DNA from: Gammaproteobacteria bacterium
GTDB taxonomy: Bacteria > Pseudomonadota > Gammaproteobacteria > Nitrosococcales > Methylophagaceae
Length of the DNA: 53,406 bases
Assembly: GCA_003645385.1 (NCBI GenBank)
Contig: QNEY01000001.1
Location: forward strand, 1 to 53,406
Direction of reading: 5' to 3'
Under the pieces are notes generated by a model, which worked only from the letters and a program-made list of their open reading frames with translations, was not told where the DNA came from and did not search any database. The stretch's first letter is position 1, and the number at the start of each line of letters is the position of its first letter. Positions 31,978 through 47,023 of this stretch are shown one piece after another. The position numbers were made by a program, and so were the translations under genes.

Positions 31978-31993
31978 TCTCCTTATAAAAGTG

Positions 31994-32266
31994 CTACATT
32001 ATTTTGATATGTTTATTCACCATGCCGATTGAATTGAACCAGCCCACACGACCGTCATTCAAACGAACTTTATACCATATAGTTCTTGCAGCATTGTTTG
32101 TTCTTCTGATTTCTAATATCTCAAATTTTGGGTCTTTCACGTTTTCAATTGATTGATCTTGTTTCAAACCACAAAACAGTTCATCACGATGCACAGGCAT
32201 CAACTGCAATGATGCAGCAATCGTGTATTTCTTTCCTGGTGTTAATTGAAAGTATTTCATTGCCAT
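31994..32266 (-). CDS. SH3b-like small protein
   Basis: WYKVRLNDGRVGWFNS resembles a bacterial SH3 signature. 90 aa. Confidence 0.4.
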   Translation of the reverse strand: MAMKYFQLTPGKKYTIAASLQLMPVHRDELFCGLKQDQSIENVKDPKFEILEIRRTNNAARTIWYKVRLNDGRVGWFNSIGMVNKHIKIM

Positions 32267-32280
32267 AATATTTTACCTTT

Positions 32281-32715
32281 TCAAATTTTCAAAGCTCTTG
32301 CTGTTAGTCTGATTAATCTACCAGGAAAAGTATTTACACCACCAACATCCATCGGTGATCCTGCTATACAACCCCAATTCGTATATCCTTCAGCCGTCAT
32401 AATAGAATCAAAATGTGCTCGGTGTAAATACTCCCAAAGCTGCATTGATAATAAATCCAAATCCTTCATTGACTGTTCTTTGTCATCATAGATATTTACA
32501 TCAACAGCAAACTCAGACCCGATATTTTTTCTAGTGCCAAAATCAGCACCGCCATGTGAGCTAATAAATATTGCAGGATATTCAGCATCATCTGGAATCT
32601 TAAAGCCAGTAAATATTGCAGGTGCTGCAACTCCGCTTGTAAACTCGTATGTTGCAAGTTGACTTGTAATTGAAGTGTTCATCAAAATAAATTGTTGTAT
32701 AACTTTTTTAATCAT
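32281..32715 (-). CDS. Tail completion / terminator-like protein (DUF3168-like)
   Basis: 144 aa, just upstream of the tube gene, with ATGA coupling to the gp10-like gene. N-terminal pattern as in DUF3168 proteins. Confidence 0.45.
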   Translation of the reverse strand: MIKKVIQQFILMNTSITSQLATYEFTSGVAAPAIFTGFKIPDDAEYPAIFISSHGGADFGTRKNIGSEFAVDVNIYDDKEQSMKDLDLLSMQLWEYLHRAHFDSIMTAEGYTNWGCIAGSPMDVGGVNTFPGRLIRLTARALKI

Positions 32716-33179
32716 TTTTTTGTCTTTCTGCTATTCAAATTTCTACCTGCTGAAGTCCCATCTAAATCCATTCCCTTGAAAAATTTTGGGAAATTCTTTC
32801 TTGCACTTGTTAATGCTGGTCCCATAAATGGTCGTGCTGGAAGATGAATTACTTTTTTTGTAGTTACTTTTATGATCGCACCAAACTCTTGATATTTCCC
32901 ATAAAATGCCATACGAGTCGGACCGACAAGAACCGAAGCAGCACCATTCACTGCTGTCTTAATGCTGCTACGTAAATGATTGCTTTGAATATTTGGTGGT
33001 GTTCCTGGTTCACTTGGTTTTCCAACTTTACCCTGTCCACGCCTGCCACTTTTCATACTGCTTTTGGCTTCACGCTCAACAGCAGCACCGCATTGGACAA
33101 GCGGCTTTATTGTTGATTGCTCAACAGCTTTTCGGACACCTTTTTCATCCAACCAGAATTTGCCTTTTGCTTCGATCAT
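32712..33179 (-). CDS. HK97 gp10-like tail component
   Basis: EREAKSSMKSGRRGQGKVGKPSEPGTPPNIQSNHLRSSIK resembles the HK97 gp10 family. Position fits. Confidence 0.55.
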   Translation of the reverse strand: MIEAKGKFWLDEKGVRKAVEQSTIKPLVQCGAAVEREAKSSMKSGRRGQGKVGKPSEPGTPPNIQSNHLRSSIKTAVNGAASVLVGPTRMAFYGKYQEFGAIIKVTTKKVIHLPARPFMGPALTSARKNFPKFFKGMDLDGTSAGRNLNSRKTKK

Positions 33180-33760
33180 GTTATTGGATTCTCAATCTTT
33201 TCTAAAAGTAAAGTCTTTGTCAATGCACCTGGCACACTTTCAACTGCCGTCACTCGATAAAAATTGCTCACTGTATATTGTTCAGATGCTTCAATGATTG
33301 CTGCTTCTGCCACCGCATCTGTGGCTGTTTTTGTTATCGGTTTATTTATCTTTTCAAGTGTCAATCTCTTTGTGAGTCCACCTTTCAAAAATTCAACTGC
33401 TGTGACTCGATAAAAGTTTTCAATTTGTTCATCAGATGTCACTTCAAACAATATCGGATCCGTTGTTCCTATTGATGATCCAGAATCATTTATTGATTTG
33501 CAATATGCCCAATAAACACCTGCTTCAAGTGTGACTGTTGCTTTGCCAGTTACGTTATCAAAGACAGCTGATGGAGTTGTTAACCATGAACCACCATCTT
33601 CTTTGACATATAAATTGTTCACTGTGCCAGCGTCATAGCCTGTCAATGTAGCTTCAACAGTTGGTGCTTCATTACTTGATGGAATCGTCATAGTCGGTGC
33701 TGATGGAGTTCCACTTCCACCGCCAATGTCATATCCGATAGGTGCAATTATTACAGGCAT
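33176..33760 (-). CDS. Structural protein: Ig/FN3-like N-domain plus duplicated 29-aa C-terminal module
   Basis: NFYRVTAVEFLKGGLTKRLTLEKINKPIT and NFYRVTAVESVPGALTKTLLLEKIENPIT are repeated 51 aa apart. Confidence 0.55.
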   Translation of the reverse strand: MPVIIAPIGYDIGGGSGTPSAPTMTIPSSNEAPTVEATLTGYDAGTVNNLYVKEDGGSWLTTPSAVFDNVTGKATVTLEAGVYWAYCKSINDSGSSIGTTDPILFEVTSDEQIENFYRVTAVEFLKGGLTKRLTLEKINKPITKTATDAVAEAAIIEASEQYTVSNFYRVTAVESVPGALTKTLLLEKIENPIT

Positions 33761-34773
33761 TATGGGTCCACCAGTTGAGTCCGACCAGCCGGAGTTGTTT
33801 CATTGTATTGTGTCTTATTAATTACAGATCCATCTTTGTTCAATGCTTTGTGTTCTTTCAATGGAGTGGAATCATCATCATCAAGTGTGACAATTGTTTC
33901 ATTGTCAACGTCATACGCTTCTGATCCTGTCATCAGCTTTCTTGTTAATGTCACAATTGCATTGATCAAGTTTTGATTTGTCACAGTTGCAGGATCAGCT
34001 GGCAAATTATCAGTCTTTGCTTTGATTGCAGTTGTCAATGCACCAAGAGCAATAAGCAATGCTTCATTTTGATCAACCTCTGCAATGACAGCAATTCTAT
34101 TTGCAGTTGCATTTGCTTCTGTAGCTATCCCAGATATGTCAGCAGGATTCCAACTGCCAGCATTATGTGAACCTGTTAATTGTGCATCAACAGCAGCAGC
34201 CGTGATGTCATTCAAACTATCAAGTGTCTGTTTTGTTCCTGCAATCGTGAAGTCAGCCTTATCTGTCAAAGAGCGTGTGACGTATGCCCATATATCTGCA
34301 ACTAAAGTGCCAACGCCTGTAAGTGTTCTTGTTCCTGCACTCCAGACAGCCGAGGTTACGTCCACAACTAATGTTCCGAATGAGGTTAGTGTTCTACTAC
34401 CTACAGCCCAAACATCAGCTGCTGAATGACTTGATCTTGTTGAAACAGCTACATCAAGATTTGTGTCAACAGTTGATTTTATAGAATCAGTATCAAGAAT
34501 GATATTCTCTAACAACTCGCTTCCTTCGCCGCCTTTATATCTATCAAAGTTTGATAACGAAACTCCACCATCAACTGAAAAATAATATTGCCCATTGTCA
34601 GGAGCATTATATTGGTATTTATAAAATACTTCAAAAGTGGCTGCATCATTAACCTCGGTCATTGCTGCACCATCGACCACTTTGACATTATCAGATATTC
34701 GCCAGCCTGATATTGTTGGAGTCAATCCTTTTTCTGGTATTCCATTTTTATAAAAGAATGCTGTTATCCACAT
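33760..34773 (-). CDS. Fibre-like structural protein with VW-x5-R-[TS]-LT repeats
   Basis: DVWAVGSRTLTSFGTLVVDV / AVWSAGTRTLTGVGTLVADI / WAYVTRSLT. Ala/Thr-rich central helical region. Confidence 0.55.
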   Translation of the reverse strand: MWITAFFYKNGIPEKGLTPTISGWRISDNVKVVDGAAMTEVNDAATFEVFYKYQYNAPDNGQYYFSVDGGVSLSNFDRYKGGEGSELLENIILDTDSIKSTVDTNLDVAVSTRSSHSAADVWAVGSRTLTSFGTLVVDVTSAVWSAGTRTLTGVGTLVADIWAYVTRSLTDKADFTIAGTKQTLDSLNDITAAAVDAQLTGSHNAGSWNPADISGIATEANATANRIAVIAEVDQNEALLIALGALTTAIKAKTDNLPADPATVTNQNLINAIVTLTRKLMTGSEAYDVDNETIVTLDDDDSTPLKEHKALNKDGSVINKTQYNETTPAGRTQLVDP

Positions 34774-34928
34774 TTTGACTCACCTTTTTGGATTTCCATA
34801 ATTTGCTTTCTTATTCCATCTGCATTTTGCTGCACTGTTTTTGCTCGCATTTCAAGTTGACCTATCTCAAAAACACAATCAGCAAATGCTGCTTTTAATT
34901 CTAGTAATTTCTGTTTTTCATCTGACAT
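34764..34928 (-). CDS. Hypothetical 54-aa coiled-coil protein (below ORF-track cutoff)
   Basis: Read by hand: MSDEKQKLLELKAAFADCVFEIGQLEMRAKTVQQNADGIRKQIMEIQKGESKCG. GGAGGG SD. The stop overlaps the next ATG. Confidence 0.45.
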   Translation of the reverse strand: MSDEKQKLLELKAAFADCVFEIGQLEMRAKTVQQNADGIRKQIMEIQKGESKCG

Positions 34929-34945
34929 AATTTTATCCCTCCGAA

Positions 34946-35365
34946 TTAAACTTCTATAATATCCTCTGCGTCAGCAAACCAATTTGCCTCGTAATCTTCT
35001 GTTAATTTATTGCCGTTGCCGTCCAATTGAATTTCACCGTCAACAACAACATACCGTTGTTGTATATTACTTTTCTTCCAATTAGCATACAGTTTGCTTG
35101 TCAAGTCGGATACCGTTCCACTTAATAATTCAGCAAGCATAGCTGACTGCTCTAGCGGTGAATCATCTGGAAACAAATCATTAATTCCAATCGTTTTTAT
35201 TTCCCGTTCAATTCTATTTTTATCACCGCCTTGCCGTGCAGCCAAATCTTTGAATAATCCTAACTCGGAAATAATTGTATAATTCATCGAATTTAGGGTG
35301 AAACTTATTATTTTCCAGTATTCACCAACATAATTTTTATAAATGTATTCTTTTCTCAGAGCCAT
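34946..35365 (-). CDS. Hypothetical protein (fibre module)
   Basis: ATG at 35365 (MALRKEY) is preferred over the TTG at 35383, which would overlap the upstream gene. Confidence 0.5.
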   Translation of the reverse strand: MALRKEYIYKNYVGEYWKIISFTLNSMNYTIISELGLFKDLAARQGGDKNRIEREIKTIGINDLFPDDSPLEQSAMLAELLSGTVSDLTSKLYANWKKSNIQQRYVVVDGEIQLDGNGNKLTEDYEANWFADAEDIIEV

Positions 35366-35375
35366 TTTATTTATC

Positions 35376-36923
35376 CTATACAATGTTAGTTATTATGCCA
35401 CCTGTGACTGTTACCGTTTTGCCATCCGTTGTTGTGAAATTACCAGTTGCTCCTGCTGCTGCACCTATTCTAAAAAGAGTTGAAGAACTCACATCTCCAA
35501 CAACATCAAGCGGATAAGCTGGAGCATTTTTGTTGATTCCTATGCGACTTGTTCCAGCATCTAAAAAGAAACAATTGGCATTGGTATCGCTTTCAATTCT
35601 AAAATCAGTATCGAAACCAAGATTGTTAAAAACGATTTCAGCGGTTGCTTTTTCAACAATAAAATCCCAAGTCGTTCCTGTATAAACTATAGACACATCA
35701 TTGCCTAATCCCAACCGGAATTTAGTATTGTCCTGTGGAATATCAACGTATCCTGATGTAAGGAATAAATCTATCTGGTTTATTCCCATAGCAAAACTAT
35801 TCAAGGTCGCATTGGTTATACTCTTGCCGATTGCTAAGGCATAGGATGCTCCATAACTTACTTCATTGTTATAGCCTATCGCTAAACTAGCCCAGCCTTT
35901 TGCCCGTGGTCCATCACCAAAACCTTGACTGGGACCAATTGCAGTTGCATAATTCGCCTCTGCAAGAGCGTCAAATCCAATCGCTACTGAACTATAACCT
36001 TGTGCAGATGCTCGATCGCCAATCGCAACCGCTGCCGGTTGCAACGCCTCAGAGTTGGTTCCGAGTGAAACTGAATAGTGAGCTACCGCATTCACACCAA
36101 ACCCCAGACCAACAGATCCATGTCCTTGTGCTCTCGCAGCATAACCCATAGCGACACTAAAATTACCAGATGCGACTGTAGCTTGTGCTGGCATTATTTG
36201 ATAACCACCAGCAGCAAAGGATGATATACCTGAAGCAATCGACCTATCGCCAAAAGCTGCGGAATAATTGCCACTAGCCTCACAGTCATAGCCCATCGGT
36301 AAAGCATAATTACCTATAGGAGATGTATTGCTAACACTTTGAAGGATTCCAAATCTCAAACTCTGAATTTCTTGTATCGCTATTTCTGCTTCTGTTAACT
36401 CATAAACCTCAAATCTATAAATGTTCAAAGTTCCACCAAAACCGCCAAAATCCTCTAACTTTGGACCAGTCGCCGCTGTCGCTTGAAAGTATGCTACATC
36501 TTCTGCAAAACCTGATAATACTCCAGCACCCCAAGTAATATCCCATCCACCGACGCTTAATTTAGGAGCCATAAAACTTATGACCTCAATCTTGTAATCA
36601 ACTTTATACCATTTCCCAATAGTTAAGGTGGTTCCGTATTGTGTTAAAGCTGTGAATGCTGTCGTTGTCTGAACGTAATTATCTGGTCCAGATATAGGCG
36701 TCCATGCACTTGAAGCATCGGTCCAGCCTGTTTCACCATTGTCAAATTCACCGTTAACAACAGTAGACGATTCCGCTATGCCAGCAATTAACTTCTCATA
36801 AACGGTTAAATTTTGAACATCACTATCACCGATATTGGTAAGATCAAACCCCTGCCAATCTTTATCGGCATCTATTATTAATGCAGAAACTAATCCTGAA
36901 AATGACGTATTATCTAATAACAT
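35376..36923 (-). CDS. Fibre protein with YadA-head-like (Hep_Hag-type) repeats
   Basis: Serial x-A-x-G-x2-S-x-A-x-G units: AFGDRSIASGISSFAAGG, VAMGYAARAQGHGSVGLG, AVAIGDRASAQGYSSVAIGFDALAEANYATAIG, LAIGYNNEVSYGASYALAIG. ATG at 36923. Confidence 0.6.
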   Translation of the reverse strand: MLLDNTSFSGLVSALIIDADKDWQGFDLTNIGDSDVQNLTVYEKLIAGIAESSTVVNGEFDNGETGWTDASSAWTPISGPDNYVQTTTAFTALTQYGTTLTIGKWYKVDYKIEVISFMAPKLSVGGWDITWGAGVLSGFAEDVAYFQATAATGPKLEDFGGFGGTLNIYRFEVYELTEAEIAIQEIQSLRFGILQSVSNTSPIGNYALPMGYDCEASGNYSAAFGDRSIASGISSFAAGGYQIMPAQATVASGNFSVAMGYAARAQGHGSVGLGFGVNAVAHYSVSLGTNSEALQPAAVAIGDRASAQGYSSVAIGFDALAEANYATAIGPSQGFGDGPRAKGWASLAIGYNNEVSYGASYALAIGKSITNATLNSFAMGINQIDLFLTSGYVDIPQDNTKFRLGLGNDVSIVYTGTTWDFIVEKATAEIVFNNLGFDTDFRIESDTNANCFFLDAGTSRIGINKNAPAYPLDVVGDVSSSTLFRIGAAAGATGNFTTTDGKTVTVTGGIITNIV

Positions 36924-36935
36924 TTTATATTCCAA

Positions 36936-37319
36936 TTACATTAAGTGTAAAAGCCATCCAACTAAAGCAATAACAATTGTGACAATCATTCCGACTGAAA
37001 ACCTGCTTGTTTCTTTTGAGTCTGCAAGTGCTTGATGTTTTTCAGCACAAACCTCTTTGTGTGCTGTTAGTTTCTCTGACACTTCTGTTGATTTGGTTTT
37101 TGCTTCATCAGATTTTACAAACAATCTTTCAAAATACTTGCTTGCTTTTTCTGTAAAATCTTTTTGTGACTCTTTGATTTCTTCAACATTTTCAGCAACA
37201 GCTTTTGCAGATTCTTTTTGAACATTGACATGACCTTCAACTTTCGCTTCAAAAGTATCCATTCTGCCTTCCAATCTAATTATTTTATTCTCATTGCTTT
37301 GAGGTGTTGGCTCAGTCAT
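36936..37319 (-). CDS. Coiled-coil protein with single C-terminal transmembrane helix
   Basis: C-terminus FSVGMIVTIVIALVGWLLHLM. AAGGAA SD. 8-nt overlap with the upstream lipoprotein gene. Confidence 0.6.
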   Translation of the reverse strand: MTEPTPQSNENKIIRLEGRMDTFEAKVEGHVNVQKESAKAVAENVEEIKESQKDFTEKASKYFERLFVKSDEAKTKSTEVSEKLTAHKEVCAEKHQALADSKETSRFSVGMIVTIVIALVGWLLHLM

Positions 37320-37638
37320 TCTTTATTTCCTTCTTGAGTTCTGCATTTTCTTTTTTCAATTCAATATTTTCTTTCAATGCCAAAACCAACAAACGCAAAT
37401 CTTTCAGATGAAGTGCAGCATATCCACCAAGATTCATCTTTCCTGCAAAGTCAGTTCCACCAACTGTGACATTGATCTTCTTGTTTGTTGCAATGATCAG
37501 ACTACCGTTTGACTCCTCCGGAAACTTTGCAATTGAACTGTATACCACACGATCTTTCACCCCGATCAAGCAACCAGTCATGCTGCTGCAAAACAGAATC
37601 AGCATCAGGAGCAATGTCACTCGGATCAAGTGTTGCAT
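37312..37638 (-). CDS. Putative lipoprotein with C-terminal coiled coil (spanin-like candidate)
   Basis: From the internal ATG at 37638: MQHLIRVTLLLMLILFCSSMTGC, a signal peptide with a lipobox-like M-T-G-C. Ends KENIELKKENAELKKEIKND. Weak SD. Confidence 0.5.
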   Translation of the reverse strand: MQHLIRVTLLLMLILFCSSMTGCLIGVKDRVVYSSIAKFPEESNGSLIIATNKKINVTVGGTDFAGKMNLGGYAALHLKDLRLLVLALKENIELKKENAELKKEIKND

Positions 37639-37747
37639 TGTCAGGTTCTTCAACTGAAACAGTGGCTGATGTTGTAAGCATTTTTGATAATACATTTGAT
37701 ATGATCTCCGCAATAAATTTGAAAACAGGTGCAAGTGCAGCCCACAT
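37502..37747 (-). CDS. Hypothetical 81-aa ORF overlapping the lipoprotein gene out of frame
   Basis: ATG at 37747 lies 7 nt after GGAG and directly after the holin-like gene. Amphipathic N-terminus MWAALAPVFKFIAEIISNVLSKML. The last 137 nt overlap the lipoprotein frame. Confidence 0.3.
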   Translation of the reverse strand: MWAALAPVFKFIAEIISNVLSKMLTTSATVSVEEPDNATLDPSDIAPDADSVLQQHDWLLDRGERSCGIQFNCKVSGGVKR

Positions 37748-37749
37748 AA

Positions 37750-38058
37750 TTATTCTCCGTTACCGTTTGGTGGAGTCACATTCTTTGTCATTTCAATTTC
37801 AGCTGCTGCACGTTTGACATCGGCTCTAGTTTTCATGTATCCAAGATCAGTCAGAGTTTTGCCAGCAAAAGCAATTGCTGCCATGATACCACCAACCCAA
37901 GTTGCTGCTGCTGTGCCTTCAACTATACCAGTGATCTGTGCAGAAAAAGCAATGACAACACCAATGATCATAATGACGATTGCAAACCAACCGTGTGCTT
38001 TTGCAGTTGCAAACTCACTTGTTTTGATTCCATCTTTGAAAACTTCTTTTAATTCCAT
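37750..38058 (-). CDS. Two-TM small membrane protein (class II holin-like)
   Basis: TM1 is WFAIVIMIIGVVIAFSAQITGIV and TM2 is AAATWVGGIMAAIAFAG. Charged C-tail. GGAGGA SD. Confidence 0.5.
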   Translation of the reverse strand: MELKEVFKDGIKTSEFATAKAHGWFAIVIMIIGVVIAFSAQITGIVEGTAAATWVGGIMAAIAFAGKTLTDLGYMKTRADVKRAAAEIEMTKNVTPPNGNGE

Positions 38059-38074
38059 TGTAAAATCCTCCGAG

Positions 38075-38272
38075 TTAATATTTCAATTCACGTATGCTGA
38101 TGACATCATCAACATCTATATCCTCATTGATAAATACTTCATCAATAGAAATGACAGCTTTGTTGATTAGCATGTTTCCAAAAAACGCAACTGGCACGCC
38201 AAGAACTTCATCATATCCACCCTGACCGTCATCAACTTTTTCAATCCTATACCGATAGTATGTTGTTTTCAT
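38075..38272 (-). CDS. Small head-tail joining candidate
   Basis: 65 aa directly after the adaptor gene. Loose resemblance to short head-closure proteins. The call is mainly positional. Confidence 0.3.
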   Translation of the reverse strand: MKTTYYRYRIEKVDDGQGGYDEVLGVPVAFFGNMLINKAVISIDEVFINEDIDVDDVISIRELKY

Positions 38273-38273
38273 T

Positions 38274-38807
38274 TTATCTGATCCTTAAATCAAAGCTGTA
38301 TGGTCGGAGTTTCTTCATAATCTTTGCTGTGAAAAACTGTTCATAATCAAGATTGTTTGAACTGCCATTTGGTCTGTTCCAATATGCTTCATAAACAAGA
38401 TCAAGCAAGACTTGTTTCAGCCCAGCAGGACAATCAGTTCCATCTGTATTGTAGCCAGCTCCATAGGTTACTTTCCAGCGTTTTGTGCCAGATCCAAATG
38501 AATCATATGTGCTGTTGCATTTGAACTCTATCCGCATTTCAGTATGGATAAAATCTTCAGTCAATTCGGTATCGTCATAATTATCTTCAATCTTTGTAAC
38601 TGAATTAATCGGAAGTAATTGTGGGCGTAAAGATTTATTGCCACCATCGCAATTTGCAATAGCAGTGTCATCACCATCATGAAAATATATTCCAGTTTTC
38701 TGTGCAATGAAGTTCTGCATTGATTCAATGATAATTGTCACCAAAGTATCTTCCGATGGTGCTATTATCTGCAAGAACTGTTTTGTTGTTGTAAGATCAA
38801 CGATCAT
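38274..38807 (-). CDS. Head-tail adaptor (gp6-like connector)
   Basis: The N-terminus DLTTTKQFLQIIAPSEDTLVTIIIESMQNFIAQKTG matches the gp6-like connector pattern. ATG at 38807 follows AGGTGA. Confidence 0.6.
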   Translation of the reverse strand: MIVDLTTTKQFLQIIAPSEDTLVTIIIESMQNFIAQKTGIYFHDGDDTAIANCDGGNKSLRPQLLPINSVTKIEDNYDDTELTEDFIHTEMRIEFKCNSTYDSFGSGTKRWKVTYGAGYNTDGTDCPAGLKQVLLDLVYEAYWNRPNGSSNNLDYEQFFTAKIMKKLRPYSFDLRIR

Positions 38808-38988
38808 TATTTTCACCTATTGTTTGAATTTCATTGACGTTTCCAATAATCACAAGCATTTTGCACGCTTCAAGTTTTCTTGCTTGTGAATAACCCATCA
38901 TATCCTGATCACCTTTGAATCTTCTGAATAGTCCTTCAGATGTTGATATTGCACCTTCTGTCAGCCATTTAATCAAAACTTTCTTCAT
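38797..38988 (-). CDS. Hypothetical small protein
   Basis: ATG at 38988 overlaps the GT2 stop (TAATG). 63 aa. Overlaps the adaptor start by 11 nt. Confidence 0.4.
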   Translation of the reverse strand: MKKVLIKWLTEGAISTSEGLFRRFKGDQDMMGYSQARKLEACKMLVIIGNVNEIQTIGENNDR

Positions 38989-39734
38989 TACCAATATTGT
39001 CCTACGCCATTAGTTCCAAAATGCAGCACATTATTTGAATCTGGTGCTGGTGCAGATTTCACTTCAGGAAATTTCTTTTGAACCTCTTTCCACCATCTTG
39101 AATCTTCTTTCCTGTTTTCTCTGAACTTCACTTCATCCCAAATCCACTTCGGGAATGCCATGTTGCATCCCATGATTGCAGCTGTTCCATTTTCAAATCC
39201 TCTGTGTCCTATTCTACTGCAATTTGAAAGCATCTTCAGCTGATCATAAGTGTCAACAGCTTCTGGAATCAGTTTGATTTCAGGAATAAAATATCTGGGT
39301 CCAACAAAGACTTTCTTCATCTGATCTTTGCTGATGAATACAGAATCAACATATACTTGACAATGGATACTAGCACCCATTTTCCAGCCAACATATGACC
39401 ATTTATTGAGCTTGCCAGAATAAATATCTCTGTATGTTTCAATGAAATTCTTTGGGAATGTGCAATCAGCGTCAATCGTCACAATTATATCAATATCTCT
39501 GCAATGCTCTTGTATGGCATTGTTAATTGCAATGCCACGTGAATATGCGTTTGGGTGAAGATCGTGACGGGAAACGTGTATATTATCGCTCTGGTCAAAG
39601 GCTGGTGATATGTCCATACTGTCAAGAGCAACAATAACTTTGTCAGCTTTGACAGTCTGATTTCTAAGTGCATGAATGATCTTTGACCACTCTGCATATT
39701 GTTTGTGAAATGCGATAATCAAAGCAATTTTCAT
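38988..39734 (-). CDS. Glycosyltransferase, GT-A fold (family 2-like)
   Basis: N-terminal beta strand MKIALIIAFHK..., NQTVKADKVIVALD, and the DxD-type motif VTIDADCTF. ATGA overlap with the upstream gene. Confidence 0.65.
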   Translation of the reverse strand: MKIALIIAFHKQYAEWSKIIHALRNQTVKADKVIVALDSMDISPAFDQSDNIHVSRHDLHPNAYSRGIAINNAIQEHCRDIDIIVTIDADCTFPKNFIETYRDIYSGKLNKWSYVGWKMGASIHCQVYVDSVFISKDQMKKVFVGPRYFIPEIKLIPEAVDTYDQLKMLSNCSRIGHRGFENGTAAIMGCNMAFPKWIWDEVKFRENRKEDSRWWKEVQKKFPEVKSAPAPDSNNVLHFGTNGVGQYW

Positions 39735-40315
39735 TTTTCTATTCTTTCAAATACCATCACGTTTTTCCAATACCACCATTGCACGTTGGATTCTTTCCAA
39801 GATTTTCTAAGATTTTCAGTCATGCTTTTCTTGAAGGTCAATCCCTTGCTTTCAATCTTGTCAATCCAATATTGATGTGGTTTTTCATTGACATGATTGT
39901 TGCCACCTTGATTCGGAACAGCACCAGAAAAAATCAACCATTTTCCAGCAATGTCAAGAATGTTGTCAATTGCAACATCTTCAAATTCAGCATCAATATG
40001 TTCAATTACCTCAAGGCAGAATGCAAGTTCTGCTGGCTGACATCCAATATTGTTTTTCAAATTTGCAATCCTAATGTTTTTAGGATCATAAGCAAAATCT
40101 TTTGAGTGTTCAGAAGCATCAATGCCATAGACTTCAACGCCAACATTGTTAAATTCGTTCAAGTGATTGCAAGGACCGCAACCAATATCAATGACTGTTT
40201 TTGGGTGAAACAGATCAACAATTGAATCAACCATAAAACGAGCTTGTTCAATGTGTGCTGGAAGTGCCTTGCCAGTCATCCATTCTTTGTTGTAAATATC
40301 AGATTCATTTTTCAA
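39731..40315 (-). CDS. Class I SAM-dependent methyltransferase
   Basis: Motif I VIDIGCGPCNH, post-I acidic YGIDAS, and FCLEVIEHI. Apparent TTG start at 40315 overlaps the upstream gene by 11 nt. Confidence 0.7.
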   Translation of the reverse strand: MKNESDIYNKEWMTGKALPAHIEQARFMVDSIVDLFHPKTVIDIGCGPCNHLNEFNNVGVEVYGIDASEHSKDFAYDPKNIRIANLKNNIGCQPAELAFCLEVIEHIDAEFEDVAIDNILDIAGKWLIFSGAVPNQGGNNHVNEKPHQYWIDKIESKGLTFKKSMTENLRKSWKESNVQWWYWKNVMVFERIEK

Positions 40316-40868
40316 AGTTCACCACTCCACAAATATGATTGTTATTGCCTTGAATGATCTTCACTTTGCCATATTTCTCAAAATATTTAATTGCTGCTTC
40401 ATCATTTGCCCAGCCGATCAGATGTCCATCATCAATCAGTTCACGTTTTGTTGGCATTCCACGAGGAACTGAAAAGATCAAACGATATTTTGCAACCATT
40501 TTGATTCTGTTCATTATGTTTGCGAGTTCTTCCCATGTGAAATGTTCGAGTGTTTGACAACAGACAACAGTGCCAAATGAATTTCTCCAATGCTCGCCAA
40601 GTTTAGTTACATCACCTTTCAAGAATATCTTATCTGGCATTTGCTCTTTTGCTTGCTCGATTAAATATGAACTAATATCCATTCCAACATACTGTGTTTT
40701 AGGATCAAGATATTTGCAGAAACGACCAAATGCACAGCCGATCTCAAGAACTGATCCTTTGACATTTCTGACAGCTGATGCAAACTCCATTGAACGATCT
40801 CTGAAGTCATTTTTGTCAGTGTATTTCTTGCCTTTCATGTTCCACCAGTCAAAACTATTTGCTTTCAT
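40305..40868 (-). CDS. Class I SAM-dependent methyltransferase
   Basis: Motif I VLEIGCAFGRF, YVGMDIS, and VCCQTLEHF. Confidence 0.7.
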   Translation of the reverse strand: MKANSFDWWNMKGKKYTDKNDFRDRSMEFASAVRNVKGSVLEIGCAFGRFCKYLDPKTQYVGMDISSYLIEQAKEQMPDKIFLKGDVTKLGEHWRNSFGTVVCCQTLEHFTWEELANIMNRIKMVAKYRLIFSVPRGMPTKRELIDDGHLIGWANDEAAIKYFEKYGKVKIIQGNNNHICGVVNFEK

Positions 40869-41442
40869 ATTCTTTCCTTATTTGTTTGTAAAGTTCATAT
40901 TCTTTTGCAGCATTATGACTTCCAATTGGTGACAGTGTTCTTTCTTGTTCGTGCAGAACTTCAGGTGCTTTGTCATATTCCCAATAATGATATGGCTTTT
41001 TATACCCCCAGAAATCAAAGCCATACAAATCACAATGTTTCAATCCCACTGTTTTATGCACCCAATAAATGAATGTGATCCCTGTGCTTGGCTTATGCCC
41101 TAAAAGACTCCAAAGTTCTTGATGGATTTCTTTTTCAATGAATCTGATTCTTGTGTTCATTGGAACTTTTCTTCCGGCAAGATGTATTCTGTTCGGATCG
41201 GGCCATGTGCAATAAACTTTGTCAAATGGTCCATATTCCCATCGTTCAAGATATTCTCCACCGCATGGTGTATCGTTCAAGCAAGTCACATAGATGTTTG
41301 CTTTCTTGCCATAATCTTCTGTATGAACCGGCTTAAATCCTTGAAATCTGACAACATAATCATGGCTGTCAATTTGATTGCCGAGGCATTTACCAAATTC
41401 ACCAATTCCATTTCCGACTATTGCCATAACATCAGGAAACAT
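40855..41442 (-). CDS. GT29 (sialyltransferase)-like glycosyltransferase
   Basis: Sialyl-motif L-like AIVGNGIGEFGKCLGNQIDSHDYVVRF, S-like PSTGITFIYWVHKTVGLKHCDLYGF, motif III-like HYWE, and VS-like HNAAKE, in canonical order. Confidence 0.6.
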   Translation of the reverse strand: MFPDVMAIVGNGIGEFGKCLGNQIDSHDYVVRFQGFKPVHTEDYGKKANIYVTCLNDTPCGGEYLERWEYGPFDKVYCTWPDPNRIHLAGRKVPMNTRIRFIEKEIHQELWSLLGHKPSTGITFIYWVHKTVGLKHCDLYGFDFWGYKKPYHYWEYDKAPEVLHEQERTLSPIGSHNAAKEYELYKQIRKEYESK

Positions 41443-43462
41443 CAATTTTCCATTTCTGCATATTTGTATATGCTCTTTTCACGATCTCTGGAACATCCCA
41501 GTCAACTGCTGATAATATCCCGTCACCACAATCACCAATTTCACCATCCCAATTATGCCATGCTGCCATTCTTTCATTTCTTGCATTGTCATCACCATCA
41601 CGCTTCAAATAAAAATCATGTTTTGCTTGCATGATCTGCTTTGGCAGACAATGACCAAGATGATAAATTCGTGCTTCAGGAATAAGCAACGCTTCTTTTT
41701 CTCTGATGCTGTGCAATCGTTTGTGATTAGCATCAACCATTGTTGGATGTTCTTTGAAGTGATATGACTTTCTTAAATACGACCAACGATAATGCGGACA
41801 TGCAGAACCGCCATCTTGAAGTGGCAATCCCCAACGCCATGATCTTTTTAGCTTCGGATCGTCATGCACATATTGCTTCAGATTGTGCCAGAAATTAATC
41901 CATCTAGGACATCCGAAATCAATATCTGCTTCAATCCATTTGTCAAGACCAGTCCAGATTTCATCACCGTCAAGCAAGATGTGATAATTGCCCGACATCT
42001 GATCAAGACACCAGTTCCGCATTTGACGTTTATCATTCCATACTTTTTCAAGCATGATGATTTTATTATCGGGATCTGGAAAGTTTTTAATTCTTTCAAG
42101 TGATCCATCGTCAATATTCTGTGCATGATATGTCTTGCCATAAGCAATGACAATTTCATCAACGTATGGATAAATACTTTCTAATGATTCAGAGCAAACG
42201 CCCCAATATGCAAGCAACTGTGCTGAAATCTTTTTCTTTTTGATTGTGTGAAATCTCAAATCCTCAACAGATGATTTCATTGCTTCCATGCCAAATGTTT
42301 CAGCTTCTTTTTCTGGTTCAATCAAATTAGCATACGTTTCTTTTTCTTTGACAACCGTGTTGACAAGTTCTTTGTATGCTTCACGGTCATTCCATTTTGC
42401 ATATGATATTCTACTGCCATACACTTCATGCAATACGGGCAGATCATACACAACAACTGGTGTGCCACAAGCGAGTGCTTCCATCGGCACCATGCCACAT
42501 CCTTCAAATAAACTTGGAGCAAGAACAATGTCAGCATTCAGATAATATTGATACTTTGTTACATCGTTGATTTGCTCCAATATTTTATACTTATGTTTTG
42601 CAGTGTCAGCTGGAACTTTCTTTGGCTGACCGATCATCATAAGATCCATATCACAATCAAGTGCTGCGATTGCTTCAAGAGCAACGTCACCGCCTTTATA
42701 TTTTGGTCCACGTGCTGACCAAACCGCATACGGTCGCAAATACGGACTGTCAAGTTTCTTTGCTTCTTCAAGCGCAAACGTATTAACGGCTGGAAGTAAA
42801 ACACCAATCTCAGAAACGTCACGATTGACAAACTTTGCAAGATACTTTGCTGACTCTTTTGAATTTGCGATTAAGTAATCAGCTTGAGTGAACAATCCTG
42901 ATCTGATATTTAATTGTTTTGCATAGTCTGGGCAAAATTCAGCCACCCAGTTTGGTGTTTCAAAGTTAAATATAACAAGCGGTATGTGTGGATTATCTTT
43001 CTTCCACTGAAAAGCTGCCCGACCAATTGTGCTTTTTGTATCAGTCACATACATATCAAGATCCATTGGAATTTCATCCGAGTTCCATATTCTGATCTTC
43101 AGATTTTCGTACTTCGGATAATCATTCATCCAAAGCGGATATCTGTCTGTAACAACATACACTTCAGCACCAAGTTCAGCCAGATTCAAAGCATATTGAT
43201 AAAGATGCAATCTGCCACCAGAATACCATGGGCTTGTTTCTATGAAAATGCCAATTCTTTTTATTCTTGTATTCACGCCAGCTGGCTTTCCAATTCTGCC
43301 ATGACTTTTATGTGACAATCTTCTGTGACCAATCTTTCCTTCTTTCAGCATTCTTTCAGCATCAGACCGAAGCATGACTTTGATTAGATCGCCAGAATTG
43401 ATGGTGACTTTATCGCCATTACTATTAATTACATCTTGCTTTATCAACGATCTGTAATACAT
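41432..43462 (-). CDS. Two-domain glycosyltransferase (GT-B/GT4-like plus GT-A-like)
   Basis: GT4 signature PSLFEGCGMVPMEALACGTPVVVYD in the first ~400 aa. The C-terminal ~260 aa carry YHILLDGDEIW (DxD-type) and DEIVIAYGKT. Confidence 0.75.
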   Translation of the reverse strand: MYYRSLIKQDVINSNGDKVTINSGDLIKVMLRSDAERMLKEGKIGHRRLSHKSHGRIGKPAGVNTRIKRIGIFIETSPWYSGGRLHLYQYALNLAELGAEVYVVTDRYPLWMNDYPKYENLKIRIWNSDEIPMDLDMYVTDTKSTIGRAAFQWKKDNPHIPLVIFNFETPNWVAEFCPDYAKQLNIRSGLFTQADYLIANSKESAKYLAKFVNRDVSEIGVLLPAVNTFALEEAKKLDSPYLRPYAVWSARGPKYKGGDVALEAIAALDCDMDLMMIGQPKKVPADTAKHKYKILEQINDVTKYQYYLNADIVLAPSLFEGCGMVPMEALACGTPVVVYDLPVLHEVYGSRISYAKWNDREAYKELVNTVVKEKETYANLIEPEKEAETFGMEAMKSSVEDLRFHTIKKKKISAQLLAYWGVCSESLESIYPYVDEIVIAYGKTYHAQNIDDGSLERIKNFPDPDNKIIMLEKVWNDKRQMRNWCLDQMSGNYHILLDGDEIWTGLDKWIEADIDFGCPRWINFWHNLKQYVHDDPKLKRSWRWGLPLQDGGSACPHYRWSYLRKSYHFKEHPTMVDANHKRLHSIREKEALLIPEARIYHLGHCLPKQIMQAKHDFYLKRDGDDNARNERMAAWHNWDGEIGDCGDGILSAVDWDVPEIVKRAYTNMQKWKIDVS

Positions 43463-44206
43463 CTATTGATCCTTATCCTTGTCAGCAACTTCAATTGATG
43501 ATCTTGATACAAAATTAAGATCAAATAATTCAATGACTCTGAATGAAGCAGAATCACCAAACAATTCAACTTTTGCACGATTATCTTTTAATAATACAAT
43601 GATCTTTCCGTCAAAGTTTTTGCCGTTGAACATTGTCTTGACCAGATCGCCTTCTTCAAGTTCTTCAGAATCGGGATCTGATTCAAGTGGAACACCTTTC
43701 AAGACTTTTCTGGCAAGATGACAGCCAAGAATGAAACTGACTTTTCTTTGCTTCATCAATGATTTAATTTGCTTTTCGATCTTTGATGGGTTTTCATTGA
43801 AGTCAAATGAAATCAACATGACATGTTCTGCTTCTGTCAAAACTTTATACCGATCTTTGACTTTCAGCAAAGCATGTTCAATTGTCAGTTTGTCATCACC
43901 AGAATTTGGCTTTGGTGCAATGTAATTCATCAGCATTGCATAAACAGAGTTTGCTGGCATTCCTAAAAGATCAGCTGTTTCTTTGATGATTTCTTTGTTG
44001 TTGTCATAGATTAAATCGCCTTTGGTTTTCTCACTTCCCATAGGCAATACAGCTTTCAGCTTGATCTTGCCAGCTTTGATCTTCTTTTCTTTTAGCAATT
44101 TCTCAAGTTCAGGACGTTGCCTAATATCAAAATGTGATCCTTTTGAAATCTTCACTCTGACATCATTCTGCATTCTTTCAAAATCTTTTAGTGCGGTCAC
44201 GATCAT
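43463..44206 (-). CDS. Hypothetical protein heading the glyco-cassette
   Basis: ATG at 44206 follows GGAGGA; the track start at 44248 is a GTG. The C-terminus GDLVKTMFNGKNFDGKIIVLLKDNRAKVEL looks like a small beta-barrel (Tudor/SH3-like). Confidence 0.5.
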   Translation of the reverse strand: MIVTALKDFERMQNDVRVKISKGSHFDIRQRPELEKLLKEKKIKAGKIKLKAVLPMGSEKTKGDLIYDNNKEIIKETADLLGMPANSVYAMLMNYIAPKPNSGDDKLTIEHALLKVKDRYKVLTEAEHVMLISFDFNENPSKIEKQIKSLMKQRKVSFILGCHLARKVLKGVPLESDPDSEELEEGDLVKTMFNGKNFDGKIIVLLKDNRAKVELFGDSASFRVIELFDLNFVSRSSIEVADKDKDQ

Positions 44207-44283
44207 TTCATATCCTCCGGTTTTATAAAAAATTTCAATCTGATTCACTTCAATAAATGAAACTGACAGAAAGTTTTTTAATA

Positions 44284-44319
44284 GGTGGTGCAGAGTTGAA
44301 AGATAAACTCCACACCACC
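44284..44319 (-). other. Stem-loop downstream of the capsid gene
   Basis: GGTGGTG (44284..44290) pairs with CACCACC (44313..44319), and GAGTT with AACTC across a 2-nt bulge. No U-tract follows on the transcribed strand, so it may be an attenuator or stabiliser rather than a strict terminator. Confidence 0.3.
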
Positions 44320-44345
44320 CACGCCCTTACCAAGAGAATAATATT

Positions 44346-45764
44346 TTAACTTCCTTGACCAACTAAAATACTGAATGCACGTTCAAACATAGGCTGTCCA
44401 CCAGCAAGACCGTCAACACGGTAAGCAATGGCACCTTTTTTAAACTCTGCATGTTCACTTCGAGCAATTGCAACTTCTTCTTCAAGGACAAACCAGTAAT
44501 TCATCAGGTTGCCGAAGATGATGTCACCAACTGTTCCGAGTGCAGAACAATTATGACTTATGAAGTATGGATGATTATCCAAACGATCATAAGGACCAGA
44601 TCCCACTGAATTGGAGAATAAAGGATCTCCGTTGGTATCTTTTTGCTTTTTCAAATACTTCAGAACCAAGTCAGCCATGATAAAGCCAGCACCGTTACGG
44701 TGAGCAGCTTTGACTTCGTGTTCCAGATTGATCAGATCATCATACACAACTTGCAAGTTTGTTTGACGACCGACGGTTCTGATTCCAGCCATGACAGTTA
44801 TGCCAAGAGGCTGTGCAACTCCTGAACCTGACATGATTGCTTGATCAAACTTGGCGATCAATGCAGCACGCAATTTTGAAACAAGTTCATTTTCAAAAGG
44901 TAACCGTGAACGCATCAGCAAAGTTTTGGTGAAACTTGTGTATGCTTTCAGAGGATAGCAATTGATTGTGACACGTTCAAAATCAATTTCAGTATCAGGA
45001 GCATCTGATTTTTCATCAGTCCATTCAACTGCAATACCACCAAATTCATTGCTGTCATCTTGCTCAAGTTTTGTTTCAACAAGTGAGCCGCCGACAGTGG
45101 TCTTTTTGTTTACTCGCATATACAGACTCGGTTCATCAAATGGCAACTGAAGGATCTGATTGCCGTAATCGGGCCATACTAAGTTAGCACGACCACCGGC
45201 TGCATCATTGTCTGTTGAAGCCATCGGAAGTGCCTTGCCACCAAACGGCATACCGGGCAACATTCTACGAAGTAAAGAATGCGGAATGACAGCTTGAAAT
45301 CCACCACCCTGTTTGTTGCCGATGTCACGAATTGCAGCAGATTTCGGAGTCAAGATGTTCAGTTCTTGATCTTTCATGTTCCGTTCGCCGTTCTTCATAA
45401 AATTGAAAAACGCTTCACCCTGCAAATGCTCGTGCTTTTCTTGTGAAGTATTATCAAAGACTTTGACATCATCAACTTTCTTGCCAGCAAGTGCAGCTTC
45501 ATCGGGAATAACAACTTTCTTGAAATCAGCAGCTTTTGCAAGTAGCAGATCAACATTTTTCTGTTCTTCCGCTTCTTTAATTGCTTCGGTAAGTTCATCA
45601 GAAATACTTTTGACTTCTGCATGTGCAGTGTCATAGGCTTTCTGGGCAATTTCAATGTCAGCTTCAACTTCTTTTTCCGTTGCGTCTGCAACAGCAACTT
45701 TCATTGCTTTCATTGTTTCAACAGCTTTTTGCAGCTTTGCTTGGAGTTCTTTTAACTTATTCAA
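44346..45764 (-). CDS. Major capsid protein, HK97 fold, with N-terminal coiled-coil delta-like region
   Basis: 472 aa after the protease gene. N-terminal ~100 aa are helical (NKLKELQAKLQKAVETMKAMK...). Apparent TTG start lies 6 nt after AGGAGA. Confidence 0.85.
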   Translation of the reverse strand: MNKLKELQAKLQKAVETMKAMKVAVADATEKEVEADIEIAQKAYDTAHAEVKSISDELTEAIKEAEEQKNVDLLLAKAADFKKVVIPDEAALAGKKVDDVKVFDNTSQEKHEHLQGEAFFNFMKNGERNMKDQELNILTPKSAAIRDIGNKQGGGFQAVIPHSLLRRMLPGMPFGGKALPMASTDNDAAGGRANLVWPDYGNQILQLPFDEPSLYMRVNKKTTVGGSLVETKLEQDDSNEFGGIAVEWTDEKSDAPDTEIDFERVTINCYPLKAYTSFTKTLLMRSRLPFENELVSKLRAALIAKFDQAIMSGSGVAQPLGITVMAGIRTVGRQTNLQVVYDDLINLEHEVKAAHRNGAGFIMADLVLKYLKKQKDTNGDPLFSNSVGSGPYDRLDNHPYFISHNCSALGTVGDIIFGNLMNYWFVLEEEVAIARSEHAEFKKGAIAYRVDGLAGGQPMFERAFSILVGQGS

Positions 45765-45774
45765 TGTAATTCTC

Positions 45775-46836
45775 CTATAAGTTTACGATTTTGGAAGCAA
45801 GCTCTGCCGATAGAGCTTGATACTTCACAATATCTTCATCCATCGAGTGAACATCAACAGTGGCAACTGTTTTGTCCGGCTCAATATTCGGATCTTCAAT
45901 TGTGTCATCTTCATCATCCGCATCATCACGACTGTTGCCTGACAGTGTGACATCAGATGACAAGACTTTTATTTCAACACTGATAATTTTCGCTTCAGTG
46001 ATTTCATATTCATCATTCGTTTTGATTACATCAAACAGAATATTTGTGCAGCATTTTTCAATATCATCAGTCACTTCAATGTCAACTGGAATCTTGCCAG
46101 ATGCTCCACGCTCTTTGATCGACTTTGTGAAAGCTGAATCAGCAACTTTGAAAGTTTCAACAAAGACATTTTCATAATAGACACCAACGCCATCGTCATT
46201 GATCTTCAGCTTGAAAAGTGGTTCTTCTTTTTCTTCAGTCTTTTCAACTTTGTCACTGAACAATGCAGCCATGACATCTTTCATCAGAATTTTGCTTTGA
46301 ACTGACTTGCTTAATGCTTCAGCATTTGCTGGAACTGGAACAGCAGACACTTCAACAATTTCAGCTTTTGTGATGTCATAGCCAAGGATTTCTTTATAGC
46401 CATATTCATTTTCTTTTTCGGCTCTGATTTCTTCCCACTCTAAAGGGATGAAGCCAATTGACCAAGCACGCATATATTTCTTTTTGTAAAGTTCCCAAAC
46501 TTCACGAGCAAGTTCAGTTTCTTCATGGAACTGCACAGTCAATTCAGTTTTGTTTTTGAACACTCTGACATTCAATGCTCTTGCAATGGGTGGTATGCTG
46601 TGATCATGTGCCCAGAGCATGACAGGATTTTTTAAGAAAGCATCCCAGATCAAACCATCTGAACGAACATTATCACCATCACGATCTTTGCTCGAAGTTG
46701 TTGCAATGATCTTCATTGTCCGATCTTTTTCGTTGATCGAAATGATGTCATAGTTGACAACATGCAGCATTTTTTCACCCTTGACAATCTCTTTGACATT
46801 AAGATTTGGGATTTTATCTTCTGCTTTTGGTGGCAT
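45775..46836 (-). CDS. Prohead protease (HK97/S78 family) with long acidic C-terminal extension
   Basis: MLWAHDHSIPPIARAL, AWSIGFIP and VEVSAVPVPANAEA match the S78 protease pattern. About 160 extra C-terminal residues include DDADDEDDTIED. Confidence 0.8.
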   Translation of the reverse strand: MPPKAEDKIPNLNVKEIVKGEKMLHVVNYDIISINEKDRTMKIIATTSSKDRDGDNVRSDGLIWDAFLKNPVMLWAHDHSIPPIARALNVRVFKNKTELTVQFHEETELAREVWELYKKKYMRAWSIGFIPLEWEEIRAEKENEYGYKEILGYDITKAEIVEVSAVPVPANAEALSKSVQSKILMKDVMAALFSDKVEKTEEKEEPLFKLKINDDGVGVYYENVFVETFKVADSAFTKSIKERGASGKIPVDIEVTDDIEKCCTNILFDVIKTNDEYEITEAKIISVEIKVLSSDVTLSGNSRDDADDEDDTIEDPNIEPDKTVATVDVHSMDEDIVKYQALSAELASKIVNL

Positions 46837-46864
46837 AATACTTTCTCCTGAAATACTCTATTTT

Positions 46865-47023
46865 TTATTTATCTTCTTTGTATGTGTTGTCAGTAATTTC
46901 TTCACCAGTTATTTTGTCAACATATTTGACTGTGCCTTCAAGACCATTCTTTCCTTCAGTATACACCAGTTCAACATCTTTGATCTTATCGTCTGGAATA
47001 TAAGGTGGTGGCTGTAATCCCAT
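46865..47023 (-). CDS. Hypothetical 52-aa protein (below ORF-track cutoff)
   Basis: Read by hand: MGLQPPPYIPDDKIKDVELVYTEGKNGLEGTVKYVDKITGEEITDNTYKEDK. The ATG overlaps the MuF stop (TAATG). Confidence 0.4.
   Translation of the reverse strand: MGLQPPPYIPDDKIKDVELVYTEGKNGLEGTVKYVDKITGEEITDNTYKEDK

Follow-up and report, generated by a model that had tools for sequence, protein, structure and literature searches.

Glycosylation of the virion of a tailed phage by enzymes of the phage itself has been demonstrated only in mycobacteriophages, in the literature that we searched, and there it lowers recognition by antibodies. The described examples are Che8, Corndog and Myrna (Freeman et al. 2023, as summarized in PMC12363180 and PMC12619734). 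According to these two articles, which cite Freeman 2023, the glycans of Che8 and Corndog are located at the C-termini of the capsid and tail-tube subunits. In Corndog, the head gene cluster includes genes for an O-methyltransferase and three glycosyltransferases (PMC4351075). Here we describe a cassette of six close-packed genes (minus strand, 38988-44206) flanked by the genes for the HK97-type major capsid and the gp6-like adaptor in contig QNEY01000001.1, a siphophage genome of about 53.4 kb that constitutes the whole stretch of DNA analysed (53,406 nucleotides (nt); the window). The sequence derives from a public metagenome run, SRR6478753, whose Logan contig measures 53,380 bp. An earlier annotation made from this DNA, hereafter the original prediction, had taken the six genes for a set of glycosyltransferases and methyltransferases, with one unknown protein, that is probably directed at the virion, and had pointed to the mycobacteriophages for a precedent, which the accounts cited above bear out. 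In our analysis, the central member is an enzyme of 676 amino acids (aa) that is found beside the capsid gene in many related phages, and glycosylation of virion proteins is the best-supported reading of the cassette, one to which we give somewhat more than even weight on the basis of sequence comparison.

The 676-aa enzyme had been described as a glycosyltransferase with two domains, one GT4-type and the other GT-A-type. Both are present, but the number of modules is three, as the full-length AlphaFold model (built with 37 homologues; predicted local distance difference test score (pLDDT) 92.9) contains an additional module at the N-terminus (Table 1). The GT4-type domain scored 68.3 bits with Glycos_transf_1 (PF00534), against a cut-off of 26.4. 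Its nearest structures in Foldseek were retaining GT4 enzymes, with MshA (3c4q, E 2.6e-16), BshA and SenB as the top matches, and the E-x7-E motif (E320, E328) was invariant in 37 sequences. The domain displays everything by which CAZy GT4 is recognized, namely a score above the Pfam cut-off, the GT-B fold and the E-x7-E motif, and is predicted to be a retaining sugar transferase that elongates a glycan. The C-terminal GT-A domain fell below the threshold of the Pfam GT2 profile (E 0.037) and was recognized by structure. When the domain was modelled alone (pLDDT 71), the top Foldseek matches were the glycocin glycosyltransferases SunS and ThuS (E 4e-7, TM-score 0.44, identity 10-14%), followed by LARGE1, RmlT, SpsA and the ppGalNAc-Ts. 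D500 is invariant and the DGDE motif is conserved. These matches are suggestive of an initiating protein glycosyltransferase, a prediction for which the likeness to peptide transferases is not decisive. As for the third module, its ~47 aa are similar to the beginning of the 247-aa protein encoded between the capsid and the enzyme (44066-44206; E 5e-4 in an hhalign comparison with the N-terminal part of the 676-aa family). Proteins of only 129-160 aa with this N-terminal module are encoded in the interval between capsid and enzyme in five relatives (L032, L035, L037, L040 and L045). This shared module of about 47 aa may dock the proteins that carry it to a common partner.

Near-identity searches of INPHARED with the 8-kb region and with the 676-aa protein gave no match, nor did single-protein scans of IMG/VR with the capsid protein and with the 676-aa protein. 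Related loci were found by an alignment-based scan of IMG/VR, and their gene maps were drawn by open reading frame (ORF) calling and jackhmmer labelling. More than 100 full-length metagenomic relatives of the 676-aa enzyme were obtained (counted as clusters; 36-55% identity), together with 65 IMG/VR loci carrying the family. The gene order was almost everywhere the same: the protease, the capsid, at most one small gene, the large glycosyltransferase, then the variable slot, in some loci a small ORF, and the adaptor. In the 28 distinct loci containing both ends, the slot comprised 0-11 genes and extended over 163 bp to 9.5 kb, and in three loci (L024, L056 and L072) the 676-aa enzyme alone filled it. 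In a distant branch, whose enzyme shows 25-29% identity, the arrangement is kept beside a shorter capsid of the same PHROG superfamily. A search of related phages for the same insertion point had been suggested, and the core enzyme proved to be capsid-adjacent across all 28 loci. We regard the conserved synteny and the variable slot with high confidence.

In a Pfam census of 108 slot proteins, enzymes for carbohydrate tailoring and for sugar nucleotides ranked among the commonest families: Methyltransf_24 (14 proteins), Glyco_trans_1_2 (10), GT2 (4), DegT aminotransferase, sulfotransferase and GNAT (3 each), and sugar epimerase/dehydratase, polysaccharide deacetylase and pyruvyl transferase (2 each), along with Methyltransf_23, _11 and _25, FkbM, TylF and SPASM-domain proteins. 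This great variation of the slot among relatives suggests diversifying selection on a displayed glycan. The GT29-like gene, the second methyltransferase gene and the 248-aa gene of the cassette occurred only in this phage among all related loci examined. The view that the gene set does not correspond to a described system therefore holds for the set as a whole, which is unique, but not for the cassette as a peculiar insertion, since its core (the 676-aa enzyme, often with the first methyltransferase, MT1) is widespread. Searches of the open-access literature returned no description of the 676-aa family, an absence that is not in itself proof of novelty. Relatives that had been binned were assigned to metagenome-assembled genomes (MAGs) of Planctomycetota, Deltaproteobacteria, Armatimonadia and Absconditabacterales, assignments that may reflect prophages or mis-binning. 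In one relative (L005/L033, 10001-22162), whose 81.5-kb contig was placed in a Deltaproteobacteria bin, the same slot is occupied by an island of 8.7 kb. The island encodes a 953-aa glycosyltransferase with an additional GT2 domain, another GT4, a sulfotransferase, a polysaccharide deacetylase, four Methyltransf_24 proteins and two SPASM-domain proteins, and the adaptor follows it.

We then consider the C-termini of the virion proteins. The capsid protein encoded in the window ends in ...VGQGS (44349-44363), and the tail-tube protein in ...EEISPSS. In phages with the 676-aa enzyme, a terminal serine was present in 38 of 41 distinct capsid sequences and in 11 of 12 tail-tube sequences, preceded by small or acidic residues. 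Its frequency in other proteins of the same loci was 10% (0-12% in portal, MuF, protease and adaptor proteins). The distant branch displayed it in 9/11 capsids and 5/5 putative tube proteins. As controls, we used 33 capsid homologues from IMG/VR in whose downstream region, over 2.5 kb or more, no such enzyme is encoded; these were collected by a pattern scan from a 9-sequence subset of the alignment, the full 17-sequence alignment being too divergent. Only three of them ended in serine (Fisher p = 5e-14 for terminal serine against presence of the enzyme, without correction for relatedness). None of seven capsid homologues of cultured phages had the serine, and it was not found in L5, TM4 and Bxb1. 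On the other hand, the capsid and tail-tube proteins of Corndog end in ...LVGS (gp41) and ...KGDS (gp49), and those of Che8 in ...KTGS (gp6) and ...SDGS (gp11). Taken together, the capsid and the tube are favoured as targets by gene position, by the terminal serine and by the structural matches of the GT-A domain. This agrees with the expectation that the virion itself (capsid, tube or fibres) is modified, while the glycan is a prediction. We are less confident that the terminal serine is the modification site than that virion proteins are modified at all. The major tail protein of the cultured Terrisporobacter phage TPDSL_ph1 (L081, 5210-5842) has a Ser/Thr-rich end, ...TTTAKATTTTSKS, and may be a further candidate for glycosylation.

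Table 1. Features of the cassette and of the virion genes discussed, with positions in the window.
Feature	Position	Strand	Remarks
Major capsid protein, HK97 type, 472 aa	44346..45764	-	PF05065 154 bits, phrog_10
RNA hairpin with 17-bp stem, in the 139-nt gap downstream of the capsid gene	44281..44322	-	Minimum free energy -47.2 kcal/mol, z = -6.28
247-aa protein of unknown function	43463..44206	-	GGAGG ribosome-binding site, ATG at 44206
676-aa enzyme, whole gene	41432-43462	-	Three modules
N-terminal small beta-rich module, aa 1-47	43322..43462	-	AF2 pLDDT ~85, four strands and a helix; conserved in 37 family members
GT4-type GT-B domain, aa ~65-400	42263..43270	-	PF00534; Foldseek MshA 3c4q; invariant E-x7-E
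C-terminal GT-A domain, aa 405-676	41432..42250	-	LLDGDE (DxD) motif; Foldseek SunS/ThuS
195-aa mini-GT29 (sialyltransferase-like)	40855..41442	-	PF00777; motifs L, S, III, VS
MT1, 187-aa class I S-adenosylmethionine (SAM) methyltransferase	40305..40868	-	Methyltransf_25, _11, _12 above cut-off
MT2, 194-aa class I SAM methyltransferase	39731..40315	-	TTG start; Methyltransf_23; phrog_24759 methyltransferase
248-aa orphan, weakly GT-A-like	38988..39734	-	TIDADC motif; PF00535 sub-threshold
63-aa ORF bridging cassette to adaptor	38797..38988	-	Overlaps adaptor start; 34-37% identity in L027 and L023
gp6-like head-tail adaptor, downstream boundary of the variable slot	38274..38807	-	PF05135 (Phage_connect_1), phrog_442; ends the slot in 28 distinct related loci
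Major tail (tube) protein, 137 aa	31564..31977	-	phrog_1407; C-terminal ...EEISPSS at 31567-31587

The third protein of the cassette had been judged GT29-like, and this was confirmed: Glyco_transf_29 (PF00777) gave 38 bits against a cut-off of 23, and all four sialyl motifs are present. A k-mer homology search with the protein returned the query alone. An exhaustive HMMER search retrieved 431 distant relatives, many of them stand-alone proteins of 180-200 aa. In an alignment of 25 relatives containing motifs L, S, III and VS, the histidine and glutamate of motif VS were nearly invariant or invariant, and the family profile aligned with the whole catalytic domain of porcine ST3Gal-I (2wml, residues 93-285, E 3.6e-21). 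The closest relative (49% identity) is encoded in a Gram-negative bacterial locus (L007/L008, 3279-7576) beside a NeuA-like CMP-sugar synthetase, NeuB and a HAD phosphatase, with a GT8 glycosyltransferase, a sulfotransferase and an adjoining HipA/HipB toxin-antitoxin pair. The locus looks like an uncharacterised nonulosonic-acid glycan cluster employing a bacterial GT29. The NeuA-like and NeuB neighbours support a CMP-nonulosonate as the donor, and we predict that the GT29-like protein transfers a CMP-activated ulosonic or nonulosonic acid. Another mini-GT29 (187 aa, 36% identity) is encoded on a different phage-like contig (L087, 4901-5464), immediately upstream of a possible terminase of 464 aa and a probable portal of the DUF4055 family, indicating that phage-borne GT29-like genes are not limited to this phage.

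The two class I SAM methyltransferases of the original prediction both exceeded Pfam cut-offs, MT1 with Methyltransf_25 (49.5 bits, cut-off 27) and MT2 with Methyltransf_23 (28.8 bits, cut-off 27), and the SAM motifs are visible in both (VLEIGCAFG and VIDIGCGPC, respectively). Profile and structure searches thus upheld the glycosyltransferase and methyltransferase folds, by structure in the case of the C-terminal GT-A domain. Orthologues of MT1 (34-44% identity) were found in at least 8 distinct related loci, in some of them directly after the 676-aa gene, and MT1 can be called a partly conserved companion of the core enzyme. The 247-aa protein had no match in Pfam, PHROG, NCBIfam or the Protein Data Bank (PDB). 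It has a positional homologue in L004, from a 196-kb Planctomycetota contig (L004/L009), with 22% identity (E 6e-9), and shorter counterparts in other loci. The designation of the 248-aa protein as GT2-like survives only as a weak likeness, as PF00535 gave 19.7 bits, below the cut-off of 23.3. The NCBIfam dolichyl-phosphate hexose transferase matched it at E 1e-3. No PDB match was found, a k-mer homology search returned the query without relatives, and hhalign detected no relationship to the C-terminal GT-A domain of the 676-aa enzyme. We hold the gene content and folds of the cassette with high confidence.

The six ORFs, their lengths and all junctions were as originally given (TAGATG, overlaps of 11, 14, 11 and 4 nt, and TAATG). 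The TAATG junction is real, but the gene that follows it is a seventh small ORF of 63 aa, kept in several relatives, and not the adaptor. The proposed translational coupling of the cassette to the capsid gene was contradicted, as a gap of 139 nt with a hairpin lies between them; a gap of 72-244 nt likewise follows the capsid gene in relatives. We dismissed the idea of a canonical intrinsic terminator downstream of the capsid: the hairpin lacks a U-tract, and a terminator scan made no call. Promoter-like and terminator-like matches in 31000-47000, which includes the cassette, were not above shuffled expectation. The hairpin is probably a transcript-stabilising or attenuating element that keeps the enzyme genes below the level of the capsid. 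Late co-expression with the virion proteins is suggested by the position of the genes. A recent foreign insertion was also rejected; GC and third-codon-position GC (GC3) of the cassette equal those of the neighbouring late genes, and the cassette therefore appears to be resident and not recently acquired. No transmembrane or hydrophobic segment was found in the six proteins (maximum KD19 1.35), which would therefore be cytoplasmic, where virions assemble. PADLOC returned no meaningful defence-system match, and so provides no support for a defence or anti-defence role.

On the minus strand, the late genes form a single long string that starts near 53 kb and runs to 19.5 kb. Its 5' part encodes the large terminase, the portal, a MuF-like protein, the S78 prohead protease and then the HK97-type major capsid. 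After the capsid come the six cassette genes, the 63-aa ORF, the adaptor and a block of unusual make-up, with genes for small membrane and fibre-like proteins, and the string ends with tail-completion and terminator proteins, the major tail protein, the tape measure and distal tail genes. The unusual block (33176-38272, minus strand) is a second non-canonical one, between the adaptor and the tail-completion gene; in most relatives, the tail genes come almost directly after the adaptor. It encodes proteins of 65, 102, 140 and 127 aa, a 519-aa fibre (35376-36935) with YadA-head-like repeats, and three unknowns of 145, 337 and 194 aa. The 102-aa protein has a strong transmembrane segment. Replication and DNA-methylation genes occupy the plus-strand arm, among whose tested ORFs no genes for the synthesis of sugar nucleotides, or of a donor for the GT29-like enzyme, were found. 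The DnaB-type replicative helicase (8013-10463, plus strand) is split by a LAGLIDADG/Hom_end homing-endonuclease segment (aa ~430-483) that divides DnaB_C into two stretches, and the segment is probably an intein. Two DNA methyltransferases in this arm, of the C5-cytosine and N6/N4 types (12259-13341 and 17076-18008, plus strand), stand apart from the small-molecule-type methyltransferases of the cassette.

From these results, we propose the following scheme, in which the donor sugars and the order of steps are speculative. The late operon would yield soluble enzymes along with the structural proteins, in lower amounts owing to the hairpin after the capsid gene. Because of the fold match of the GT-A domain and the serine signature, we infer that this domain attaches the first sugar to a hydroxyl group of a protein, most likely in the serine tails of the capsid and the tube. 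The GT4 domain would add a second sugar. MT1, which recurrently pairs with the core enzyme, would for that reason be the candidate to O-methylate a sugar. In this phage, the GT29-like enzyme might then cap the glycan, drawing on the host for a CMP-activated ulosonic or nonulosonic acid, possibly CMP-Kdo in a Gram-negative host or a nonulosonate, and MT2 and the 248-aa protein could, more speculatively, add further decoration. The outcome would be a short, methylated and possibly acidic glycan displayed in hundreds of copies on head and tail. Its benefits could include shielding or camouflage of the particle, stabilisation and adhesion. The fuller picture, in which a group of environmental siphophages combines a fixed, capsid-adjacent glycosyltransferase of three modules with a rapidly diversifying tailoring island, here including a sialic-acid-like cap made by a phage GT29, is one that we put forward tentatively, as somewhat short of an even chance.

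If this picture is correct, glycan coats would be common on tailed-phage particles, and virion glycosylation would be widespread in uncultivated phages of diverse environments, from Planctomycetota to candidate-phyla bins, built from a compact conserved core enzyme with interchangeable tailoring genes. A substrate rule would be common to these phages and the mycobacteriophages, probably by convergence. The rule itself, a C-terminal serine on capsid and tube proteins, is simple, and a single 676-aa enzyme would lend itself to co-expression with a capsid protein in E. coli. Both provide leads, and glyco-engineering of phage particles for shielding, pharmacokinetics or display may become possible.

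Several points weigh against the virion as the target. Lipid-linked precursors of the cell wall are also substrates of soluble GT4 and GT2 enzymes. The virion glycan is predicted from genes and sequence comparison, and the donors depend on the host, so that their identities are putative. The SunS/ThuS match is modest, with a TM-score of 0.44 for a model of pLDDT 71, and the generic GT-A enzymes SpsA, RmlT and LARGE1 fit as well. The serine-ending capsids are mutually related, and because of this kinship the statistics overstate the number of independent events. HK97 (L092) encodes no glycosyltransferase, yet its gp5 (1029-2186, ...FSSGS) and major tail protein gp12 (3734-4438, ...TLTIS) end in serine, so that the signature is enriched but not exclusive; the HK97 ends are either a coincidence or a hint of an older role for terminal serines. 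The 676-aa protein and the other cassette enzymes showed no sequence or profile similarity to Corndog gp35-38 (BLASTP E > 0.1), the set that represented the mycobacteriophages in the enzyme comparison (Che8 gp108-110 and Myrna lay outside it), and in hhalign Corndog gp36, gp37 and gp38 matched the C-terminal GT-A domain at probabilities below 1%. In addition, metagenomic studies usually read phage glycosyltransferases as modifiers of host O-antigen (PMC7029224).

This last interpretation leads to the main rival, in which the cassette remodels a glycan of the host envelope (lipopolysaccharide or O-antigen, capsule, teichoic acid or S-layer) by way of lipid-linked or cell-wall precursors, and which could block superinfection or keep progeny from re-adsorbing to debris. 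The GT4, GT2, DegT, epimerase, pyruvyl transferase and sulfotransferase families are indeed typical of polysaccharide gene clusters, and the closest GT29-like relative lies in a locus of the bacterial surface-glycan type, with NeuA-like, NeuB, GT8 and sulfotransferase genes. We nevertheless consider this rival unlikely, taking into account that the cassette contains no flippase, polymerase, GtrA/B/C-like or other membrane protein, that the core gene is fixed beside the capsid gene in the late head module across many phages and not in a lysogeny or moron position, and that no integrase occurs among the tested ORFs of the window. The serine signature on capsid and tube would have no role in envelope remodelling. 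It is also missing from both the 247-aa protein and the 519-aa YadA-like fibre, which, with a head fibre or decoration protein, are the acceptors to be considered if the cassette glycosylates some other phage protein. The 247-aa protein and its counterparts do sit between capsid and enzyme and have the N-terminal module in common with the latter, and the fibre gene is 2 kb downstream. As genes of the 247-aa type are absent from many enzyme-carrying loci and the fibre block is not conserved in relatives, such an acceptor appears less probable still than the host envelope.

A product that is neither protein nor envelope polysaccharide, such as a small-molecule metabolite or a signalling glycolipid (a free or lipid-linked glycoconjugate), would make the capsid adjacency a historical accident. 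MshA, BshA and SenB use small-molecule acceptors and the methyltransferase families are generic, but the conservation of position over two divergent capsid lineages and the hypervariable slot speak against such a product, which would also leave the serine signature unexplained; we consider it very improbable. Least probable of all, to the point of being nearly negligible, is hypermodification of phage DNA with glycosylated and methylated bases as protection from restriction. Glycosyltransferases of phages that decorate 5-hydroxymethylcytosine-type bases are diverse (bioRxiv 10.1101/2023.12.21.572611), and this phage encodes a C5 cytosine methylase. That methylase and the N6/N4 enzyme, however, are 20 kb away in the replication arm, and the tested early-region ORFs contain no base hydroxymethylase and no 5-methylcytosine dioxygenase domain of the TET/JBP-like kind. 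Further, the slot in relatives encodes enzymes that tailor sugar nucleotides and polysaccharides, the methyltransferases of the cassette resemble small-molecule or O-methyltransferase families and not DNA methylases, and a late head-module position is ill-suited to modification of DNA before packaging.

Regarding glycosylation of virion proteins as the preferred reading, we can compare the module with described systems. Seroconversion systems of the Gtr type (GtrABC) likewise consist of phage-encoded glycosyltransferases that alter a surface glycan. They make use of membrane proteins, are encoded near lysogeny or attachment sites and are expressed from the prophage, whereas the six proteins here are all soluble, with no hydrophobic segment, and are encoded in the late head module with no lysogeny-associated location. 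SunS and ThuS (GT2, peptide S- and O-glycosylation), to which the C-terminal domain bears a modest structural likeness, are soluble enzymes of the GT-A fold, have a DxD motif and place the first sugar straight onto a peptide side chain; they bind a helical leader or core peptide and not the tail of a virion protein. The chlorovirus PBCV-1 uses soluble, fused multi-domain enzymes, for example A064R with two glycosyltransferase domains and a methyltransferase, to attach methylated glycans to its own major capsid protein, and does not need the host machinery for this. Virus-encoded fused glycosyltransferases and sugar methyltransferases that act on the virus's own capsid are thus a common feature, predicted in our case. 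PBCV-1, however, is a giant virus of eukaryotes whose glycans are N-linked to a capsid protein of the double-jelly-roll type, and matches to giant-virus glycosyltransferases in BFVD were at the level of the fold, amounting to a comparison of generic glycosyltransferase folds. As to the GT29-like protein, bacterial GT29 enzymes are known from sequence analysis only (PMC5811610), and, like them, the 195-aa protein has neither a transmembrane domain nor the conserved disulfide cysteines. It differs in being a bare catalytic core that is phage-encoded and located in a head gene cluster, a minimal soluble addition to a family best known from the sialyltransferases of the eukaryotic Golgi.

The closest comparison is with the mycobacteriophages. 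In both systems, phage glycosyltransferases (in Corndog also an O-methyltransferase) are encoded within or beside virion structural genes, and the ...G/D-S ends of the Che8 and Corndog capsid and tube proteins have their counterpart in the ...(G/D/x)-S ends of the candidate substrates in this phage and its relatives, an ending that HK97 has as well. The hosts here probably are not actinobacteria (GC 38%), and the glycans of the mycobacteriophages have been reported, whereas the present module is known from genes and sequence. Its core is one fused enzyme of three modules, and its accessory set is hypervariable, including the GT29-like enzyme in this phage. We set it apart from the Corndog enzymes because homology fails and because gene position and enzyme architecture differ. 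The module thus appears to be a non-homologous type of virion glycosylation, and apparently a far more widespread one than that of the mycobacteriophages.

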